Source: Escherichia phage VpaE1_ev108. Taken from it: 64,000 nt of DNA. Where the stretch lies: sequence record LR597658. One strand, given 5' to 3'. Positions 1 through 60,423 of the stretch are shown here, piece after piece. Position 1 is the first letter of the stretch; each line of letters begins with the position of its first letter. The notes below the pieces were generated by a model. That model was given only the letters and a program-made list of their open reading frames with translations, made no database searches and was not told the origin of the DNA. The position numbers were made by a program, and so were the translations under genes.

Positions 1-15
1 AACGACCACGCAGAA

Positions 16-2355
16 GTGATTAAGAGTTCAACTTCTTTAGAGACGTCTCAAGCAAAGATTACAATGACACCTGAAATGTTCAGCCTTTTGAGTTCTGGTG
101 TATACACATTTAAAGAAAGGGCAGTTATTCGTGAACTGTCATGTAACGCAGTAGATGCTCAGAAAGAAGCTGGAAAAGAGAACATCCCATTCCATGTGCA
201 TTTACCTACTCGTTTTGAGCCTTACTTTGAAGTTCGTGATTTTGGAACTGGATTAACTCATGACAAAGTTATGAGCTTGTACCTAAACTACGGGGCTTCT
301 ACAAAGAATGACTCCAATGACTACATTGGTGCAATGGGTATCGGCTCAAAGTCACCATTTGCAATTGCTCAGTCATTCACAGTATCTAGCTATGTTGATG
401 GTGTTGTTAATAAGTACTCTGTTTACCTTGAGAATGGTATCCCTCAAGTAACTAAGCTGACAACTAACCCAACAAAAGAACCTAATGGTTTAGCTGTACG
501 TGTGGCAGTTGCTGACCACCGTATCTCAAAGTTCTTTGAAGAAGCTGGTAATGTATACTCATACTTTGCTGTAAAACCAGAAAGTAATATTGTGTACGAC
601 GATGTATTAGCAGATATGAACGTCATTGCCCGTGAAGAGGGTGTTTATGATGCCATGATTCATAAGCAAAGTTGGCGTTCTAGTGGTAACAGGACAGAGT
701 TTAATGTGGTGATGGGTAACATTTCCTACCCTGTTAACATGGAAGCATTACTTGGTGATGACTTCTTCAAAGTATTGCCAGAATTTTTCCGTAGGAGCGT
801 AGACCTTGTAAACATCTACATGCCTATTGGTTCAGTTGCTATTGCAGCTTCTCGTGAAGCATTGCAGATGAATGACACGACAAAAAATGTTATCATTGAG
901 GCTACTAAAAAGATAACTGAAGCCATTACAAAGGATGTTATCAAGAAAGTTAATAGCCAACCTACACTCATGGATGCTGCACAGGCTTATGCTGAGTTAC
1001 GTTTGAACTCACGAGAGATGTTTAATGCTGTGTGTCCAAAGCTAGAGTGGGGAGGCGTTAAGCTTGATTCTCTGGAAGAAGAATTGCTAAACATTCGTCG
1101 TGGGATTATCTACGCAGAAGACGGCTCAGTCATTTATGAACGTGACGGTAAAGGTAATATTAAGGTTGACAGTAAAGGAAACAACATTCCTAAAGTGGAC
1201 TACCTATACAATCCAGTTGCTTATGTCAAGTTCAACTCTTTAGAGAGTAAGATTCGTGCAACAGCACTTTCCTACACTCAAGAGGCAAGTATGTTCAATA
1301 TCTTTGGTGCAATGCGTAAAAGCCAAATTGAACAGTTTTTGTTCGTGATTAATGACCGTCGCAATAAAAACGGAACTGAGAAGACTGTAGGACGCAATCA
1401 AATCTTGCGTGGTGCATGTCGAGACTACGCCAACGAGTCAAGTCTGTTTCACAGATACAATGGTATTGTGTTTGTATTCTCGACTGAAAAAGAGCTAGAT
1501 GACTTAATCAACCTACACAAACTTGATAAAAGCTTGTTAAAGATTGTGAAAATGTCTGATAAGGAGCACCATTACCAGCGCAAAGAAGCTGTAAGGGGTG
1601 TTGTAAAACTCTGGAAAGCTGTTCCAGCAGAAGGTGTAGCTTCCTATAAAGAGGTTTCAGAGGACTTTGATACAATTGAAGAACCTCAGCTTTACATTAA
1701 GGCAGTTGGTGACACAGTTGATGGCGAATGTTTTTGCTCATCTCCAGAAGATGTAGCTAAGTCAGTCGCTAATGTTCTAGGGAAGACAGTCTATGTTTTC
1801 CGAAAAGCAAATTGGAAAAAGATACCAGAAGACTGGATTGAAGTAGATGAGAAGCTCTTGAACGACAGCTTAACTGATGTTCACTGGATTAATCATAACA
1901 GGTATATGACACGTATCTATATGAATGGTGTTCTTGACCTTACAAGCAGTTGGATTATCGCCAGAAACTTTACATTCAATAACAGGAAGATTTCTCGTGG
2001 TTATTGCTATTCACGAGATACTAACAAAACTATCTTCCTAGAAGGCAATGAAGATGCTGTAGAGGCAATGTTCGGTAAAATCCAATACGTTGCTGCACCA
2101 TTTGCATACACTTATACTGTTAGTGTATTGAAAACTTTGAAAGACTGTCTTGACAATGATACAAAGCTTTACAAGAAAATTAAGAAAGCTGGTGACCGCA
2201 TGGTCATTAAGGTGACAAACTACCTTTCAAAAAGAAAACAAGAAAACTTCTTGCTTTCTCATTTAGATTGGAATAAAGTGTCGCCTATCGAAGTGAGTAA
2301 GTTCTTAGGCTTTGATGTGAAGTGTGTTCCAGAAGGGACTACAATTTACGATTAA
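16..2355 (+). CDS. rIIA: rIIA-like protein with N-terminal GHKL-type ATPase fold (frame is open to window start, may be 5'-truncated)
   Basis: 779 aa ORF; GHKL motifs ELSCNAVDA (N-box), RDFGTGL (G1), GAMGIGSKS (G2); followed by second large early ORF as in rIIA/rIIB pairs. Confidence 0.6.
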   Translation: MIKSSTSLETSQAKITMTPEMFSLLSSGVYTFKERAVIRELSCNAVDAQKEAGKENIPFHVHLPTRFEPYFEVRDFGTGLTHDKVMSLYLNYGASTKNDSNDYIGAMGIGSKSPFAIAQSFTVSSYVDGVVNKYSVYLENGIPQVTKLTTNPTKEPNGLAVRVAVADHRISKFFEEAGNVYSYFAVKPESNIVYDDVLADMNVIAREEGVYDAMIHKQSWRSSGNRTEFNVVMGNISYPVNMEALLGDDFFKVLPEFFRRSVDLVNIYMPIGSVAIAASREALQMNDTTKNVIIEATKKITEAITKDVIKKVNSQPTLMDAAQAYAELRLNSREMFNAVCPKLEWGGVKLDSLEEELLNIRRGIIYAEDGSVIYERDGKGNIKVDSKGNNIPKVDYLYNPVAYVKFNSLESKIRATALSYTQEASMFNIFGAMRKSQIEQFLFVINDRRNKNGTEKTVGRNQILRGACRDYANESSLFHRYNGIVFVFSTEKELDDLINLHKLDKSLLKIVKMSDKEHHYQRKEAVRGVVKLWKAVPAEGVASYKEVSEDFDTIEEPQLYIKAVGDTVDGECFCSSPEDVAKSVANVLGKTVYVFRKANWKKIPEDWIEVDEKLLNDSLTDVHWINHNRYMTRIYMNGVLDLTSSWIIARNFTFNNRKISRGYCYSRDTNKTIFLEGNEDAVEAMFGKIQYVAAPFAYTYTVSVLKTLKDCLDNDTKLYKKIKKAGDRMVIKVTNYLSKRKQENFLLSHLDWNKVSPIEVSKFLGFDVKCVPEGTTIYD

Positions 2356-8894: not shown

Positions 8895-8980
8895 AGTACT
8901 TTACAGGGGGCTTAAAAGCTGATATCTTAAGCCCCAGATAAAGAGCTTTACCACTAAATCCTAAATTGGAGAACTTAAAA
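8892..8980 (+). repeat. type-B hairpin-leader cassette (copy 1 of 6)
   Basis: TAAAGTACTTTACA-GGGGCTTA..TAAGCCCC hairpin-AGATAAAGAGCTTTACCACTAAATCCTAAATTGGAGA..AAAAATG. Confidence 0.7.
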
Positions 8981-9707: not shown

Positions 9708-9802
9708 TAAAGTACTTTACAGGGGGCTTAAAAGTTGGTATCTTAAGCCCCAGATAAAGAGCTTTACCACTAAATCAAGTCCTTAAACTAGGAGACTCAA
9801 AA
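9707..9802 (+). repeat. type-B hairpin-leader cassette (copy 3, variant loop)
   Basis: GGGGGCTTAAAAGTTGGTATCTTAAGCCCC hairpin + conserved leader. Confidence 0.7.
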
Positions 9803-13319: not shown

Positions 13320-13360
13320 TTAAAAAGATGTTGACAATCCCTCTTGACATTGGTAACTTT
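13320..13360 (+). promoter_or_regulatory. sigma70-like promoter (tandem TTGACA boxes)
   Basis: TTAAAAAGATG-TTGACA - 17 nt - TAACTT. Confidence 0.45.
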
Positions 13361-13454
13361 GTTCGAGGGGGGTTTATCTAAAAGGGATTAACTTAAAAGA
13401 TTCTTTATAGATAGACTTAAAAAAATTGCTTGCAATCAGATATCAAAACAAGTA

Positions 13455-14707: not shown

Positions 14708-14745
14708 TCGACGCAGCGGGGCTAAATAGCCCCAGATACCTCAAC

Positions 14746-14770
14746 AGCCCCTATTTAAAGGGGCTTTTTT
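14746..14770 (+). terminator. intrinsic terminator closing the small-ORF array
   Basis: GCCCCT-atttaa-AGGGGC hairpin followed by TTTTTT; preceded by a type-B-like hairpin GGGGCTAAATAGCCCC. Confidence 0.6.
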
Positions 14771-16341
14771 ACGTCTATCCAATCCTTATACAATCCCTTT
14801 CCAGAATCTTATCAGACCTTAAAAGCAATAACTCTATAGTCTACTCTATAACCTCTTATCAAATCAACTTAAATAAAAGCCAATAACCCCCAGAAAGGGG
14901 ATGGCCCATTTAAACGCTCTATAAAGCTCTATAACAGCCTTATCAACCTAACTTAAGGGATTGCATTAACCAACCTTAAAAAGCTCTTTACAGGGCTTTA
15001 TAGAGACTTAAAAGAATCTTATAAGGGTGTAAGCTTTATTATCTCATTAGTATTCTTGTGAATATCTAAACAACCCCTTGATAGTCACTAAAAAGTATGT
15101 TATAGGGGCTTTAAAGTTACTTTGAAGTAGCTTAAAAGTTACGTAAAAGAGGCTATAAAGTTACGTAAATGCTAGCCCCCTTAACATTTTCTTAACAATT
15201 TCTTAACAAACCCTACATAGTTATGCTTGTTAGCAACTTGTTAGCCCCTTGTTAAATCTCTGTTAATACCACGTAAAAGCTTTGTAAGAGTCTTTGACAT
15301 AGCCTTTAAAGCTTCTGTAAAGCCCTATAAAGAGCTTTCTTCATAGTTGGGGTGTAATTACTAGGAAGAGCCTTAAAAGAGCTTACAAGGAGCTATAGAG
15401 AGCTTTTAAGAGGGCTATTTAAAGAGTCACTAAGAGGGAAAGGGAACGATAAGAAAGAGATAGTGACCATGTTAATAGCTTGTTAAAAAGATTAAACACT
15501 TGTTAGAGACTTGTTAATTATCTTAACAAAATAACTCTTAACATTTAACTACTTAGCTCTTGTTAGTCATCTGTTAAGATTCTGTAAAGACTATTCAGCA
15601 CTTGTTAGAAAACTGTTACAACCTTGTTAGACTTGTTAAGAATCTGTTAAGACCTTTGAAGAGTTGTTAAGAAGATGTGAGAACTGTTAAGAGATTGTTA
15701 AGGATATTTTAAAATTTTGCAAAGGGGATGTTACAGGGATGTTAAGGGCTACCAAGCAGATATACATCTTCTACAGATATTTTTCAGTTCCTTCAAAGAC
15801 CCTAAAAAATGACTTGATAGTCCTATTTTATAAAAATTTTAAGATTCTGAATAATTACCTATACAGCCTTTTAAAAATACAGGTAATAACAGGCTTATAA
15901 GATACCTTGTTAGTACCGTGTTAGACCTTGTGAGATAAGGTCTGTAAAGATATTCCTGTTAAGTTTGTTAAAACAGTCTATATAGAGGCTTAGTAGCACC
16001 TAGTGAACACCTATAGAGAGTAACATAGCTGACATAGAGATTAAGAGGTGTATAGGAGCTTCTAAGAGGATGTAGAGAGATGGTTAAGGTGATTGTATAG
16101 GTTGTTTAGAAGGCTTGTTAGAGGGCTATTTAGAAGGGCTATACAGAGGGCTATTAAGACCACTAGATAGATACTAAGATACTATATAGTACTATATAAC
16201 TATATAGAGAGTAAGATTAAGAAGGTTGTTAAGAAGGATAGATATTTTATTCACATATGATGGTGACCCAGAGGTTGGGACAACCGATAAAATTTTATAA
16301 AAATTAAAAAGCCCCCGATTAAGGAGGCTCTTAAGATATTT
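14771..16341. promoter_or_regulatory. 1.6 kb ORF-free, motif-dense region between convergent gene blocks (candidate origin / regulatory hub)
   Basis: no ORF of 60 aa or more on either strand; more than 20 copies of YTGTTAAG/CTTGTTAG between about 15180 and 16240; tandem ~20 bp units of GCT(A/T)T(A/T)AAAG.. and palindromic CTTWWAAG 8-mers. Confidence 0.5.
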
Positions 16342-23358: not shown

Positions 23359-23585
23359 TTTTCAGTTCTCCTGCGGTTTATAATTTTGCTGCAATAGAGA
23401 AACGAAGTAAACTCACTGGAAGAAACCATTAAGTGTTGTTCACTAGATTGAGCCATTGCCCTGAAATACATTCCAGTCAAAGCATCATAGTGACTATTCT
23501 TTCCAATTGAGGTTATATAGCCATGACTCTTTGCAGTTTGATATAAATCTATAATATCTGCGATTTCTAATTGGGAACTACACAT
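23352..23585 (-). CDS. hypothetical small protein
   Basis: 77 aa ORF. Confidence 0.4.
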   Translation of the reverse strand: MCSSQLEIADIIDLYQTAKSHGYITSIGKNSHYDALTGMYFRAMAQSSEQHLMVSSSEFTSFLYCSKIINRRRTEKC

Positions 23586-23749
23586 AGATAATCCTCTTGT
23601 CTTCTGTAATTTTGAAAGAACAGGTACAGACCAATTTCAGAGGACGAATAGTAGATTAATTCTACCCTTTTTGATTCCTTACAGTGATTGGTATTCTTAC
23701 CTTTCTTCGGTTTATTTGATTTTCTCATTAAGTCTCCTTTGTAGAACAA
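23567..23749 (-). CDS. hypothetical small basic protein
   Basis: 60 aa ORF, first gene of the minus block. Confidence 0.35.
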   Translation of the reverse strand: MFYKGDLMRKSNKPKKGKNTNHCKESKRVELIYYSSSEIGLYLFFQNYRRQEDYLCVVPN

Positions 23750-23821
23750 GGCAGACCTACAGCTTTAAGTAAGATGGTACAGTAATCCATACAACAAGTC
23801 AAGAACTATTGCAAGTTAAAA

Positions 23822-23870
23822 AAGTTGTTGACAAAGTACTTGACAAGGTGTAGGCTTATAAATACTTAGA
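23822..23870 (+). promoter_or_regulatory. tandem sigma70-like promoters in divergent intergenic region
   Basis: AAAAAGTTG-TTGACA..TTGACA followed by TAGGCT / TACTTA at 17-nt spacing. Confidence 0.4.
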
Positions 23871-23977
23871 AGATAACTTAAAAGGTTCCTCTAAAAAGGC
23901 TATTTAAACAGATATCTTTCTGGATATCTATCTTTTATCTTAAAAGCCTTTTAAGAGGTCTTATAAGAGGCATACCA

Positions 23978-24349
23978 ATGAAAAACAGAACAAACAAAGG
24001 CCAGTTTAAAAAAGGCCAGTCTGGAAACCCATCTGGAAGACCAAAAGGCTCTCGTAACAAAAGCTCACTTGTAAAAGCTCAACTGACCATTGATAATTCT
24101 GCTGAGTTTGCTGCAAAGTTGTTTGAGGCGATTGTTACAAGGGACGCTGCTAAGCTTGCAGAGTTCGGGTTAAACACAGACGACGTAACCATCAAGAGCA
24201 TGATTGAGGTAGGTAAAACTATCTTTACTCACTCAGCAGGTGAGATGAAAGCACTTGCAGCAGACACTAAGAAGACTCCTGATAATGGTGGTCAACAACA
24301 GACAGATAACAAACCAACGTTCTCTGCTGTTGCAACCCTCAAAAAATAA
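23978..24349 (+). CDS. hypothetical protein with GNPSGRPKG motif
   Basis: 123 aa ORF, AGAGG SD; basic Gly/Pro N-terminus. Confidence 0.5.
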   Translation: MKNRTNKGQFKKGQSGNPSGRPKGSRNKSSLVKAQLTIDNSAEFAAKLFEAIVTRDAAKLAEFGLNTDDVTIKSMIEVGKTIFTHSAGEMKALAADTKKTPDNGGQQQTDNKPTFSAVATLKK

Positions 24350-24392
24350 TTTTAAAAGGTGTTGACAGACTCTACAAAGTTGCTCTAAAGTC
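24345..24392 (+). promoter_or_regulatory. sigma70-like promoter
   Basis: TTTTAAAAGGTG-TTGACA - 18 nt - TAAAGT. Confidence 0.45.
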
Positions 24393-24430
24393 TGTCACAT
24401 CAACAAACAAAATGAGAGAAGAGAGTAAAT

Positions 24431-25846
24431 ATGAGCGAATTATTTAAACATGCGCACCTTCATGCAGGTCGAACTGAAAATGGTGCTATAAACCATACTT
24501 CATCAATGTCTGCTCTTGTAGACTTTTACAAAGCTGCGGGTTCTAGCCGTAGCAATGTAGAAATCTTACCAGACCTGTTCTACAAAGCTTTGCGTGAGGA
24601 TGTTGATGTTGCAGTTCGTATTTTGCTTCATATGCGAGATGTACGAGAGGGTATGGGTGAGCGTAAAGCTTTCCGAACCGTTTTGCTTCAAGCAATTGAA
24701 GATAAAGTTTTAGAGCCTACACAGGTTCTTCGCATTATGGATAAGATTGCAGAACTTGGTCGTTTTGATGACTTCAAAATCTTCGTAGGTACTCGTTTCG
24801 AGACAGATGCCTTCAAACATTTAGAAGCAGCATTACTAGACCCTGCAACAGCAGGTTTGGCAGCTAAGTGGTTACCACGAGTAAAACCACGTCATAAGCA
24901 GTTTGTAAAACGTTTCTGCAAGTTTGCCAACTTGAGTGAGAAAGAGTACCGCACACTGTTGTCTGCACTATCTGATACAGTTGAGCAAAAAATCTCTGCT
25001 AATGAGTTTGGTAAGATTGACTACAGTAAGATTCCTTCTCTTGCTGCTGCACGTTACCAAAAGCTGTTTAACCGTAAAGATGGAGAGCGTTACAAAGCTT
25101 ACATCGAGTCCTTATCAAAAGGTGAGACTAAGATTAACGCTGGTGCTGTTTACCCATACGATGTGATTAAATCTGTTAAGTATGGTAATGCAGATGTTGC
25201 TAATGAGCAGTGGAAAGCACTACCAAACTGGATGGCAGAAGGTGAAAACATCTTGTGTATGTCTGATGTATCAAGTTCAATGTCTTGGGTGAATTTTGGC
25301 TCCATTACTGCTCTGGATATTGGTGTATCACTTGCCTTGTATGTAGCAGAACGCAATACAGGTTGCTTTAAGAATGAGTTAATGGTTTATTCAACAAACC
25401 CTCACTTCATCGAACTGAGTGGTGATTTACGAAACCGTCATCGTCAGGTGATGCGACACGTTGAATATGGCTCAACTAACTTACAAGCAGCTTTTGACCG
25501 CATTCTTGAAACAGGTAAAAGAAACAACTTGACTCAGAAAGATATGCCAAGTAAGCTTATCATCTTCTCCGATATGGAGTTCAATCAGGTTGATGGAGCT
25601 AACGGTCGTACAAACTTTGAAGCAATTCAGAGTAAGTACAAAAAAGCTGGATATGAGATGCCACAACTGGTATTCTGGTACTTAGCAAACCGTAATGGTA
25701 CTTGCGAAGTATCTGTTAAGGATAACGGTGTAGCAATGGTATCAGGGTTCTCTCCAGCCACTTTAAAAGCTCTGCTTGGTGGTGAGAAGTTTGACCCAAT
25801 CAGCGTAATGCTCAAAGCAGTAATGATTGACCGTTATATCTGGTAA
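24431..25846 (+). CDS. Ro60/TROVE-like protein with C-terminal vWA domain (MIDAS motif)
   Basis: GENILCMSDVSSSMSW (DxSxS MIDAS, cf. Ro60 ..DVSASM as recalled), GSTNLQAAF, LIIFSDMEFN vWA motifs; ~270 aa helical N-terminal region; GAGAG SD. Confidence 0.6.
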   Translation: MSELFKHAHLHAGRTENGAINHTSSMSALVDFYKAAGSSRSNVEILPDLFYKALREDVDVAVRILLHMRDVREGMGERKAFRTVLLQAIEDKVLEPTQVLRIMDKIAELGRFDDFKIFVGTRFETDAFKHLEAALLDPATAGLAAKWLPRVKPRHKQFVKRFCKFANLSEKEYRTLLSALSDTVEQKISANEFGKIDYSKIPSLAAARYQKLFNRKDGERYKAYIESLSKGETKINAGAVYPYDVIKSVKYGNADVANEQWKALPNWMAEGENILCMSDVSSSMSWVNFGSITALDIGVSLALYVAERNTGCFKNELMVYSTNPHFIELSGDLRNRHRQVMRHVEYGSTNLQAAFDRILETGKRNNLTQKDMPSKLIIFSDMEFNQVDGANGRTNFEAIQSKYKKAGYEMPQLVFWYLANRNGTCEVSVKDNGVAMVSGFSPATLKALLGGEKFDPISVMLKAVMIDRYIW

Positions 25847-31208: not shown

Positions 31209-31409
31209 ATGAGTGAGACCGTTTATAAAGAACTTTATGAAGCTAACAAAAAGCTAGAATTTATGCAGAATACTATCATGGCAATTGCAGACAGACTGTC
31301 TGTAGCAACAGGTATTGATATTAAAGAAGCATCTATGGATGCACTTCTTGATGCCGTTGATGCAAAGTTCGAAGTTAAGAAAGAAGAGACTGCTACAGAC
31401 TCTGAATAA
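31209..31409 (+). CDS. hypothetical small acidic protein upstream of terminase
   Basis: 66 aa ORF, GGAGA SD. Confidence 0.5.
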   Translation: MSETVYKELYEANKKLEFMQNTIMAIADRLSVATGIDIKEASMDALLDAVDAKFEVKKEETATDSE

Positions 31410-58446: not shown

Positions 58447-58555
58447 AATGACCTCAAAGTTATATTAAATTTTGTATTACATTGAGTATAAAAATAAGCT
58501 ATAACACCTGACTTGTCAACAGATTTTATAGCTTATTTGGCAGATTTTTTATAAG

Positions 58556-58800
58556 GCTACTGCCATCCTTCCATACATTACCTTACCACACCTAACCATA
58601 CCTAACCAAACTACACCATACAATACCTTGTTAAAAGACCCTTTTAAAGACCTTTTAAAAAGGTAAGTCTCATTTTAATGTAGCTGAGACTAACTACCCA
58701 CACCAGACCCTACCTTACCACACCAGACCTCACCCTACCCCACCATACCGTATACTACCTCATTAAAAGACCCTGTTTAAAGACCTTTTAAAAAGGAGCC
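58556..58800. repeat. long direct repeat LR1 (~250 bp) with 70 bp core shared with LR2
   Basis: core 58631-58700 near-identical to 60023-60093; core motif AAGACCCTNTTTAAAGACCTTTTAAAAAGG present twice in LR1; CA-rich degenerate flanks. Confidence 0.7.
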
Positions 58801-58815
58801 TCCGAAGAGGCTGCC
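58790..58815 (-). terminator. intrinsic terminator (minus strand)
   Basis: minus-strand GCAGCCTC-ttcg-GAGGCTCC hairpin followed by TTTTTAAAAGG. Confidence 0.5.
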
Positions 58816-58823
58816 TAGTCAAC

Positions 58824-59266: not shown

Positions 59267-59872
<606 letters not shown>

Positions 59873-59946
59873 TTAGTTGATTGTTAAGTTGTTTGTAAAG
59901 AACCCTCAACAGAAGACTCTTTAGAAACTTGGTAGATTTTTAACGT

Positions 59947-60185
59947 GGCTACTACCATCCACCCATACTTTACCTAACCAAGCCGAACATCACACAACCA
60001 GACCGAGCCGCACCCCGCCTTATTAAAAGACCCTCTTTAAAGACCTTTTAAAAAGGTAAGTCTCATTTTAATGTAGCTGAGACTAACTACCCATACCCTA
60101 CTTTACCTTACCGTACAGTACTTTACCCGACCACACCGGACAATACTTAACCCTACCTCACCCGACCGGACATCACTTAAAAACC
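59947..60185. repeat. long direct repeat LR2
   Basis: GGCTACTACCATCC ... core 60023-60093 matching LR1; CA/CG-rich degenerate flanks. Confidence 0.7.
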
Positions 60186-60423
60186 CTTTTCAAAGACTCT
60201 TAAGTGATGCTGGTGAGTACCCGTTGGTTTATGATGCTCAGTATACTCACCAAATTTTCTATGTCAACAACTTTTATAAAAAAGTTCTGATAGCTATATG
60301 CGTCACGAAACAAAAGATTGTAAACAAGACACCCATTGCAAAAGATGTGTCCAAAAGCTTACTTGCAACGTATGACAATACAAAGACAACCAGTATAAAT
60401 AGAATGACTGTACTGAACATAGT

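Follow-up and report, generated by a model that had tools for sequence, protein, structure and literature searches.

A divergent promoter pair and a constrained, predicted inverted-repeat leader with CTTWWAAG words ahead of ORF41 in Felix O1-like phages

INTRODUCTION

Several described phage systems bear on the locus reported here. In the divergent promoter-operators of lambda OR, P22, and 434, palindromic sites accompany back-to-back promoters, while in the lambda PL-nutL-N region a hairpin leader follows the promoter and in lambda cosB repeated words stand before Nu1. Sites bound by the small terminase (TerS) adjoin or lie within the TerS gene itself in lambda, P22, and SPP1. For T7, Dunn and Studier are said to have described in 1983 short repeated heptamers (CCTAAAG-like) that flank the terminal repeat; we know of no copy of these heptamers in a T7 promoter leader.

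The locus described here lies between two divergent genes of a Felix O1-like phage. Like lambda OR, P22, and 434, it has back-to-back promoters with palindromic sites; unlike them, it belongs to a virulent phage, and its palindromes stand at +15 to +105 in a predicted leader, off the -35 and -10 elements. The likeness to the T7 concatemer junction concerns the terminus only, where arrays of CTTWWAAG, CTATAAAG, and TGTTAAG words at 14.8 to 16.3 kb flank a direct terminal repeat (DTR) of a few hundred base pairs. All positions refer to the window, by which we mean the whole stretch of 64,000 nucleotides that was analysed.

Felix O1-type phages are in wide use for the typing and biocontrol of Salmonella and E. 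coli. The Felix O1 genome paper (Whichard 2010) predicted one promoter, P41, at this site, and left temporal control, the read-through of many terminators, and the small terminase unexplained (PMC3185647). ORF41 and ORF42 were placed, by RT-PCR only, in the class with maximal expression at 25 min (PMC3185647), and our literature search found no Felixounavirus transcriptome. Of the non-coding blocks near the start of a 30-kb transcription unit for tRNAs, packaging, and structural proteins, the region is the best conserved, and it offers a concrete starting place for the study of gene control in Felix O1-type phages.

RESULTS

Location of the region between two divergent gene blocks

Sequence search identified the 64-kb window as the genome of a Felixounavirus (Felix O1-like myophage). 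The 5-kb stretch around the region is 97 to 98% identical to the Felixounavirus genomes LF82P9, garuso, and Felix O1 (NC_005282), with at least 80% of the stretch covered in 246 records. As annotated in Felix O1, the region separates minus-strand ORF40, which opens the leftward 40-24 block, from plus-strand ORF41, which opens the rightward 41-79 block; ORF42, about 24 tRNA genes, the large terminase (TerL), and the structural genes come after ORF41. The original prediction that the region separates divergent genes was borne out, the ORF40 homologue starting at 23728 (minus) and ORF41 at 23978 (plus). The ORF40 homologue corresponds to phrog_8138, which has no known function there. As set out below, the region is a divergent promoter pair, P40/P41, together with the constrained inverted-repeat leader of the ORF41-ORF42-tRNA operon (Table 1).

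Table 1. Coordinates of the features in and around the ORF40-ORF41 gap and at the genome terminus
Feature	Position	Strand	Basis or remark
DTR, ~579 bp	15175-15753	.	mapped from phages ZX4221 and HP1
ORF40 homologue	23567..23728	-	53 aa, basic N-terminus; Felix O1 annotation; AAGGAG ribosome site and ATG visible
P40, sigma-70-type promoter	23774..23802	-	TTGACT, 17 nt, TACCAT; promoter scan
P41, sigma-70-type promoter	23815..23856	+	A-rich tract, TTGACA 23828-23833, 17-nt spacer, -10 TAGGCT 23851-56
Predicted leader (5' UTR) of the ORF41 operon	23862..23977	+	conserved part ~105 nt; start placed from the -10
Long interrupted hairpin / nested inverted repeats	23877..23967	+	34 predicted pairs
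First copy of CTTAAAAG	23877-23884	+	context TAACTTAAAAGG; a fourth copy, beyond the three of the original prediction
Apical stem-loop AGATATC-tttctg-GATATCT	23910..23929	+	arms 23910-23916 and 23923-23929; invariant in Felix/Moogle/SUSP types
19-bp perfect palindrome TCTTAAAAG-c-CTTTTAAGA	23938-23956	.	formed jointly by CTTAAAAG and CTTTTAAG
Second copy of CTTAAAAG	23939-23946	+	sequence
Copy of CTTTTAAG	23948-23955	+	sequence
Copy of CTTATAAG	23960-23967	+	overlaps the ORF41 Shine-Dalgarno AAGAGG (23965-70)
ORF41, DUF5681 protein	23978..24349	+	123 aa; Pfam PF18932, E 2e-14
ORF42	24431-25846	+	471 aa; DUF2828 and DUF7788 domains

Promoters P40 and P41

At the sequence level, both P41 and P40 have a -35 box, a spacer of 16 to 18 nt, and a TAnnnT -10 element, as sigma-70 promoters do. 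P40 is invariant across all Felix/Moogle/SUSP-type relatives, and the relative L072, whose ORF41 is 69% identical, has TTGACT-N17-TATTGT at the same place. A second TTGACA (23840-23845) inside the P41 spacer is also conserved, but it lacks a conserved -10 of its own. Seventeen nucleotides past the first TTGACA, the P41 -10 in relatives always reads TAnnnT (TAGCCT, TAAGTT, TAGTGT, TAAAGT, TAAGGT, TACTCT), and such fixed T, A, and final T with drifting inner bases is the usual signature of a -10 element. The consensus promoter scan missed P41 because its -10 is too weak. The layout of A-tract, TTGACA, 17 to 18 nt, and -10 recurs at about 10 sites in the window, P41 included.

From the position of the -10, we infer a P41 start near 23862-23865, which would put all four CTTWWAAG copies and the AGATATC repeat downstream of it. 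The first CTTAAAAG is kept 18 to 21 nt past the -10 in the window and in the relatives L072, L073, L074, and L075 despite differing flanks. A T4-type late promoter was considered for TATAAATA at 23857-23864 and rejected, since relatives have AATAAATA, AATAAAAC, or CATAAAAC there and the element is not conserved.

Other promoter-like sites were seen in the window. A second twin-TTGACA promoter (TTGACA-N7-TTGACA) lies at 13331/13344, and the 11-mer TAACTTAAAAG occurs downstream of both twins, at 13389-13399 and 23874, which suggests a small class of alike promoters and leaders. Between ORF41 and ORF42, a TTGACA-18-TAAAGT promoter-like site (24362-24397) is spanned as a whole by an inverted repeat of 12 nt, TGACAGACTCTA / TAAAGTCTGTCA, a possible operator or hairpin. 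A module of about 130 nt occurs three times on the minus strand, at 58447-58823 and 59870-60273, in intergenic DNA close to strong TTGACA promoters; each copy starts with TTTTAAAAGGTCTTTAAAnnGGGTCTTTTAA and continues with GGT-rich short repeats (ggtatggtggggtagggtgaggtctggtg...), and the stem GTCTCAGCTACATTAAAATGAGAC precedes two of the copies. These modules had no Rfam match at the gathering threshold.

Conservation of the ORF41 leader

Compared with Moogle/SUSP-type phages, the leader is 91 to 94% identical, against 77 to 80% for the ORF41 coding sequence and 82 to 96% (mostly 82 to 86%) for ORF40, and in a set of 15 different upstream sequences, taken from relatives in IMG/VR whose ORF41 is 78 to 100% identical, only about 8 positions of 23862-23964 vary. 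The non-coding leader is under stronger constraint than the neighbouring genes. Across three genera, the loops and unpaired stretches of the predicted fold vary as little as its stems. No ORF was found in the leader. A search with Rfam 15 matched only tRNAs in the window, the best permissive scores reaching about 20 bits against thresholds of 100 to 141. The lack of any Rfam match, and of a PDB sequence match for ORF42, led us to reject a described RNA family or an ORF42 partner of the Y-RNA type.

In Erwinia phage phiEa104, whose ORF41 is 60% identical, TATCTATCT...CTTAAAAGcCTTTAAAG...CTGTAAAG is kept in an otherwise unalignable leader; an extra promoter is inserted downstream in this leader, and no long hairpin is predicted (z +0.3). 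A metagenome scan for intermediate leaders returned only close relatives and distant DUF5681 genes in unrelated contexts, the ORF calls downstream of the metagenome DUF5681 genes being unreliable in GC-rich contigs.

Enrichment and arrangement of the CTTWWAAG words

The two TTGACA boxes, the AGATATC inverted repeat, and the three CTTWWAAG words on which the original prediction rested are all where it had put them. It had taken the three words for palindromic 8-mers; they are present, but CTTAAAAG and CTTTTAAG are reverse complements of each other and not palindromic in themselves. What they form together is the 19-bp perfect palindrome, whose centre is 1 nt, so that it could not make a hairpin of its own; sites bound by dimers typically have such a centre. 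In IMG/VR, each Ounavirinae genome has a single copy of the 17-mer CTTAAAAGCCTTTWAAG. The leader copies are inverted and spaced irregularly, at 62, 9, and 12 nt. The AAGAGG string lies 7 nt from the ORF41 ATG, and the CTTATAAG copy that overlaps it is variable in relatives, where it changes together with the ribosome site.

We counted 39 CTTWWAAG words in the whole window against 10.8 +/- 3.1 expected, and none of 100 shuffles reached this number. In 23730-23977 there are 4 against 0.12 expected from dinucleotide shuffles of the region itself (0 of 2,000 reached 4). The excess over what an AT-rich genome would give thus holds window-wide and against local shuffles; it is not due to chance, and the observation is confirmed. 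Twenty-three of the 39 copies fall in about 7.5 kb of intergenic DNA. Some copies elsewhere belong to terminator hairpins or ribosome sites (3556, 8911, 9727, 51908). A 57-bp direct repeat known from Felix O1 has copies at 8899-8955 and 9715-9771 (CTTTACAGGGGGCTTAAAAG...AAGCCCCAGATAAAGAGCTTTACC), and each copy contains a GGGGCTTAA/TTAAGCCCC hairpin around a CTTAAAAG word as well as a promoter-like arrangement, TTTACA-17-TATCTT.

Nested inverted repeats of the leader

Folding of the plus-strand RNA 23877-23967 gave a minimum free energy of -28.4 kcal/mol (z -2.7), and the minus strand of the same stretch gave -32.1 kcal/mol (z -3.3). In the predicted plus-strand fold, the first CTTAAAAG pairs with CTTATAAG, the third copy of the original prediction, beside the ribosome site, CCUCUAAAAAGGCU pairs with AGCCUUUUAAGAGG, and the AGAUAUC repeat makes the tip. 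At the pair 23889/23957, Felix types have C-G, the relative L029 has U-G, and Moogle/SUSP types have U-A. In a model-based alignment of six sequences, pairing holds in 91.7% of the cells and 3 pairs show changes in both partners, which was matched by 9 of 500 shuffles; the covariation score for these six sequences, effectively two lineages, was not above that of shuffles.

Inspection and folding of the L072 leader revealed AGAACAT-ctttct-ATGTTCT at the tip, where both bases differ in 4 of the 7 pairs around a retained loop, and the whole leader is predicted to form a longer version of the same hairpin (-42.8 kcal/mol). At the corresponding position, different stems are found in the Hafnia-type and L073 leaders, and a TCTTWTWTCTTAA tract comes after each of them. 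The covariance model recovered the Felix-type leaders and L072, although its alignment left the shifted L072 apical stem unpaired; Hafnia-type matches were weak and on both strands. Plus-strand z scores of ten leaders from all lineages ranged from -1.4 to -5 against shuffles, and no consistent strand bias was found among them, the minus strand being equal or better in Felix-type leaders. Taken together, these comparisons indicate nested inverted repeats that are probably under selection, whether as active RNA or as duplex DNA. An intrinsic terminator or attenuator at the AGATATC hairpin was rejected: it was unflagged by the scan, there are 2 G-C pairs in its stem, and conservation does not extend to the U tract, the tail AUCUUUUAUC after the stem being replaced by AUCUCUUAUC in relatives.

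The 14.7 to 16.3 kb region and the genome ends

The non-coding region at 14.7 to 16.3 kb sits between the terminators of two converging gene blocks. The deposited sequences of several relatives begin precisely at position 15175 of the window. In the record of phage ZX4221, an exact 591-bp duplication occupies the two ends, Citrobacter phage HP1 has an annotated repeat_region 1..570, and both repeats map to 15175-15753. These records place the physical genome ends in this region, and the length of the DTR, about 579 bp, is in line with the 608 bp measured for UAB_Phi87 (PMC4837284). The start of the UAB_Phi87 record itself was discarded as a marker of the genome end, since that record was opened inside the tRNA region and not at the termini.

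The original prediction had the CTTWWAAG family filling 14.8 to 16.3 kb. The family is enriched there, with 9 copies in 14708-16341 against 0.75 expected (dinucleotide shuffles of the region itself, 0 of 2,000 reaching 9), but the dominant repeat is TGTTAAG/CTTGTTA/CTTAACA, with 24 copies. Five CTTWWAAG copies stand in the 400 bp before the DTR and 3 inside it. The left border of the DTR has three CTTAACA words and then three TGTTAGC/TGTTAAA words, with a regular distance of 11 bp throughout, and in its right part TGTTAAG words are 9 to 20 bp apart, the distance being twice 11 bp. Across 21 Felixounavirus terminal regions, the CTTWWAAG columns (0.911) do not stand out in conservation from those around them (0.910).

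The leader and the terminus were compared in four Ounavirinae lineages, with expectations from local shuffles. For CTTWWAAG, the Felix type has 4 copies in the leader (0.09 expected) and 9 at the terminus (0.70), Hafnia phage SarahDanielle 2 (0.05) and 4 (0.44), Erwinia phage phiEa104 2 (0.07) and 1 (0.40), and Pectobacterium phage Wc4-1 none in the leader and 1 at the terminus (0.24). TTAACA is missing from the leaders of the first three, which have 20, 3, and 25 copies at the terminus, respectively; Wc4-1 has 5 in the leader (0.33) and 20 at the terminus (2.33), both of its loci having switched to TCTTAACAG/TTAACA. The terminal regions of both phiEa104 (25 copies) and Wc4-1 (20 copies) are strongly enriched in TTAACA-type words. 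The motif family is thus common to leader and terminus in three of four lineages, which is suggestive but no more. Extended similarity between leader and terminus was not found; there are word-level matches of 11 to 15 nt only.

ORF41 and the small-terminase position

The N-terminal basic arm of ORF41, KKGxSGNPxGRPKGSRNK with its GRP core, is near-invariant in the alignment. In 3 of 3 unrelated contigs, a DUF5681 gene stands directly before the large terminase, overlapping it or a few bases apart, the terminase being recognised as Terminase_6N/3/3C in two contigs and as phrog_38 (E 2e-99) in the third. By this gene order, DUF5681 occupies the small-terminase position, and ORF41 is a candidate for the missing TerS of Felix O1-like phages. 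In the window, ORF41 lies 7 kb from TerL, with ORF42 and the tRNA island between them, which would have displaced it, and a small ORF (31209-31409, 66 aa, no assigned function) is directly upstream of TerL. ORF41 had no PDB or NCBIfam match, and its AlphaFold model (mean pLDDT 64), a disordered basic arm and three helices, was not reliable enough for a fold search. Among the six adjacent genes (ORF41, ORF42, and four leftward genes), none has a Pfam domain for DNA binding, helix-turn-helix or other. ORF42, which is named "RNA-binding protein" in PHROGs and vWFA in some records, is directly upstream of the array of about 24 tRNA genes and is absent from this place in some relatives (Hafnia-type, phiEa104).

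DISCUSSION

The explanation that we prefer is a leader that acts after initiation. Host sigma-70 RNA polymerase would initiate at P41, and the CTTWWAAG words and the AGATATC repeat would be the arms and the tip of one hairpin (23877-23967) whose 3' base abuts the ORF41 ribosome-binding site. The nascent leader would fold in cis, possibly with a phage or host protein bound, and would thereby govern how the ORF41 message is translated or processed or how stable it is, and perhaps also the read-through into the long downstream operon. To this cis-acting RNA mechanism, for which we infer the start, the RNA as the active form, and the regulatory outcome, we assign a probability of about 0.4. It is consistent with the TTGACA-17-TAnnnT arrangement, which in every lineage puts the motifs past the predicted start; with a constraint on the leader that exceeds that on the ORF41 coding DNA; with fold scores below those of shuffles in the window and in all ten leaders; with the well-paired six-sequence alignment, its three double changes, and the wobble intermediate in the 23889/23957 series; with the apical stem of L072, exchanged for another complementary stem around a kept loop; and with the other stems at the same place in Hafnia-type and L073 leaders. 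The last CTTWWAAG copy overlaps the Shine-Dalgarno sequence. We count with these points the published Felix O1 data, in which ORF41/42 fall in the 25-min class and temporal control and terminator read-through are left unexplained (PMC3185647).

Several of these observations can be read in terms of duplex DNA. The alternative, which we regard as possible but doubtful, is that a phage-encoded dimeric or multimeric factor binds CTTWWAAG-type palindromes at leader and terminus as DNA operators, acting as a roadblock or through a loop at P41 and having a second function at the genome end. The missing strand bias in folding is what DNA palindromes would give, with scores equal on both strands, and loops as invariant as the stems, within a leader invariant as a whole, point to sequence-specific recognition and not to structure alone. 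The perfect 19-bp palindrome, which with its 1-nt centre cannot form a hairpin by itself, is unique per genome and survives in phiEa104 although no long hairpin is predicted there, and the covariation on which an RNA fold would draw comes from effectively two lineages and scores no higher than shuffles. The RNA-leader reading also leaves unexplained why the same words are enriched beside the genome end, whereas operators would account for enrichment at both loci against local shuffles, for the concentration in intergenic DNA, and for a motif family common to leader and terminus in the Felix, Hafnia, and Wc4-1 lineages, of which Wc4-1 switched both. The first copy, at about +15 from the predicted start, is at a common repressor position, and this distance is kept in five lineages. 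Against operators, no cognate regulator was found among the six adjacent genes, the motif columns of the terminal region are not preferentially conserved, and the phiEa104 terminus is without the CTTWWAAG enrichment. The main palindrome lies about 80 nt past the predicted start (+77 to +95) and not over the -35 or -10, one pair has a U-G intermediate, and L072 swaps the AGATATC stem yet keeps the CTTAAAAG words, which is easier for a hairpin than for a half-site. The shared DNA-binding factor of the original prediction is therefore supported in part: the motif is enriched at both loci and the family is shared in three of four lineages, but the unfavoured terminal columns and the unenriched phiEa104 terminus speak against it, and copies that lie past the predicted P41 start as hairpin arms fit an RNA or structural role as well as an operator. 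RNA-level control is at least as likely. Moreover, with the physical genome end at 14.8 to 16.3 kb, any factor common to both sites would act in packaging or end recognition and would not be a transcription factor.

A form of this idea that we consider unlikely treats the leader words as a packaging-recognition array like lambda cosB before Nu1, ORF41 being the missing TerS that binds the repeats of the leader and of the DTR flanks; binding upstream of its own gene would be autoregulation or the trace of an ancestral pac/cos-type site, and binding to the related repeats of the DTR flanks would direct end formation. A recognisable TerS was reported to be absent from Felix O1 (PMC3185647). The DUF5681-TerL gene order in the three unrelated contigs, the invariant basic arm with its GRP core, the DTR inside the 14.7 to 16.3 kb repeat region, and the motif families shared by leader and terminus across lineages all agree with this idea, as does the placement of TerS sites in lambda, P22, and SPP1. 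However, the TerS assignment comes from gene order only, with no PDB or NCBIfam match and a pLDDT of 64; ORF41 is 7 kb from TerL, which another small ORF directly precedes; the ends (15175, 15753) are cut 8 kb from the leader and not close to it; and the main DTR repeat is TGTTAAG, not CTTWWAAG. Its most specific version, in which gp41 is a small terminase that reads TCTTAnnAG-family words at its own leader and at the arrays flanking the DTR, seems to us improbable; if it were true, one protein would couple its own expression to DNA-end recognition and packaging, and the leader palindromes would be a displaced cosB-like site. That the words have no dedicated function and are by-products of AT-rich intergenic DNA, of A/T tracts at terminator stems, and of AAGAGG strings is very unlikely. 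Several copies elsewhere do lie in terminator hairpins or ribosome sites and the terminal columns show no special conservation, but the enrichment holds against dinucleotide shuffles of the regions themselves, the leader is conserved more than the adjoining genes, and lineages with diverged sequence still have the first copy in its place and the architecture of the hairpin. Scarcely probable at all is a replication origin with a promoter and an unwinding element, at which the P41 transcript would prime replication in an AT-rich repeat block. A promoter is indeed followed by repeat-rich DNA of 33% GC, and the cumulative GC skew turns near 22 to 24 kb; the skew, however, tracks the direction of transcription throughout the window and so adds no separate support, the leader copies lack the regular phasing and the direct orientation of iterons, unlike the 11-bp phased TGTTAAG/CTTAACA of the DTR, and no initiator or replication gene is adjacent.

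The element, promoters with a structured palindromic leader, is undescribed so far but conventional. The main by-products of the analysis are the placement of the genome ends and the argument from gene order that puts DUF5681 in the TerS position; if a link between ORF41 and the genome terminus were true, the packaging recognition system of the subfamily would have been identified.

Among known systems, an RNA leader at this locus would most resemble lambda PL-nutL-N and the early leaders that are processed by RNase III (the lambda N leader, T7 early mRNA), which share with it a strong host-type promoter and a conserved hairpin leader. As in PL-nutL-N, the gene of a small basic protein heads a long operon with many terminators to pass; unlike PL-nutL-N, the ORF41 leader has no similarity to boxA/boxB and no Rfam match, and ORF41 is a DUF5681 protein that is not N-like. 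The resemblance to lambda cosB, with its R sites and I1 before Nu1, lies in repeated words directly upstream of a gene in the TerS position and in related words at the genome end. It differs from cosB in that the ends here are 8 kb from the gene and have direct terminal repeats in place of cohesive ends, the TerS role being suggested by gene order.
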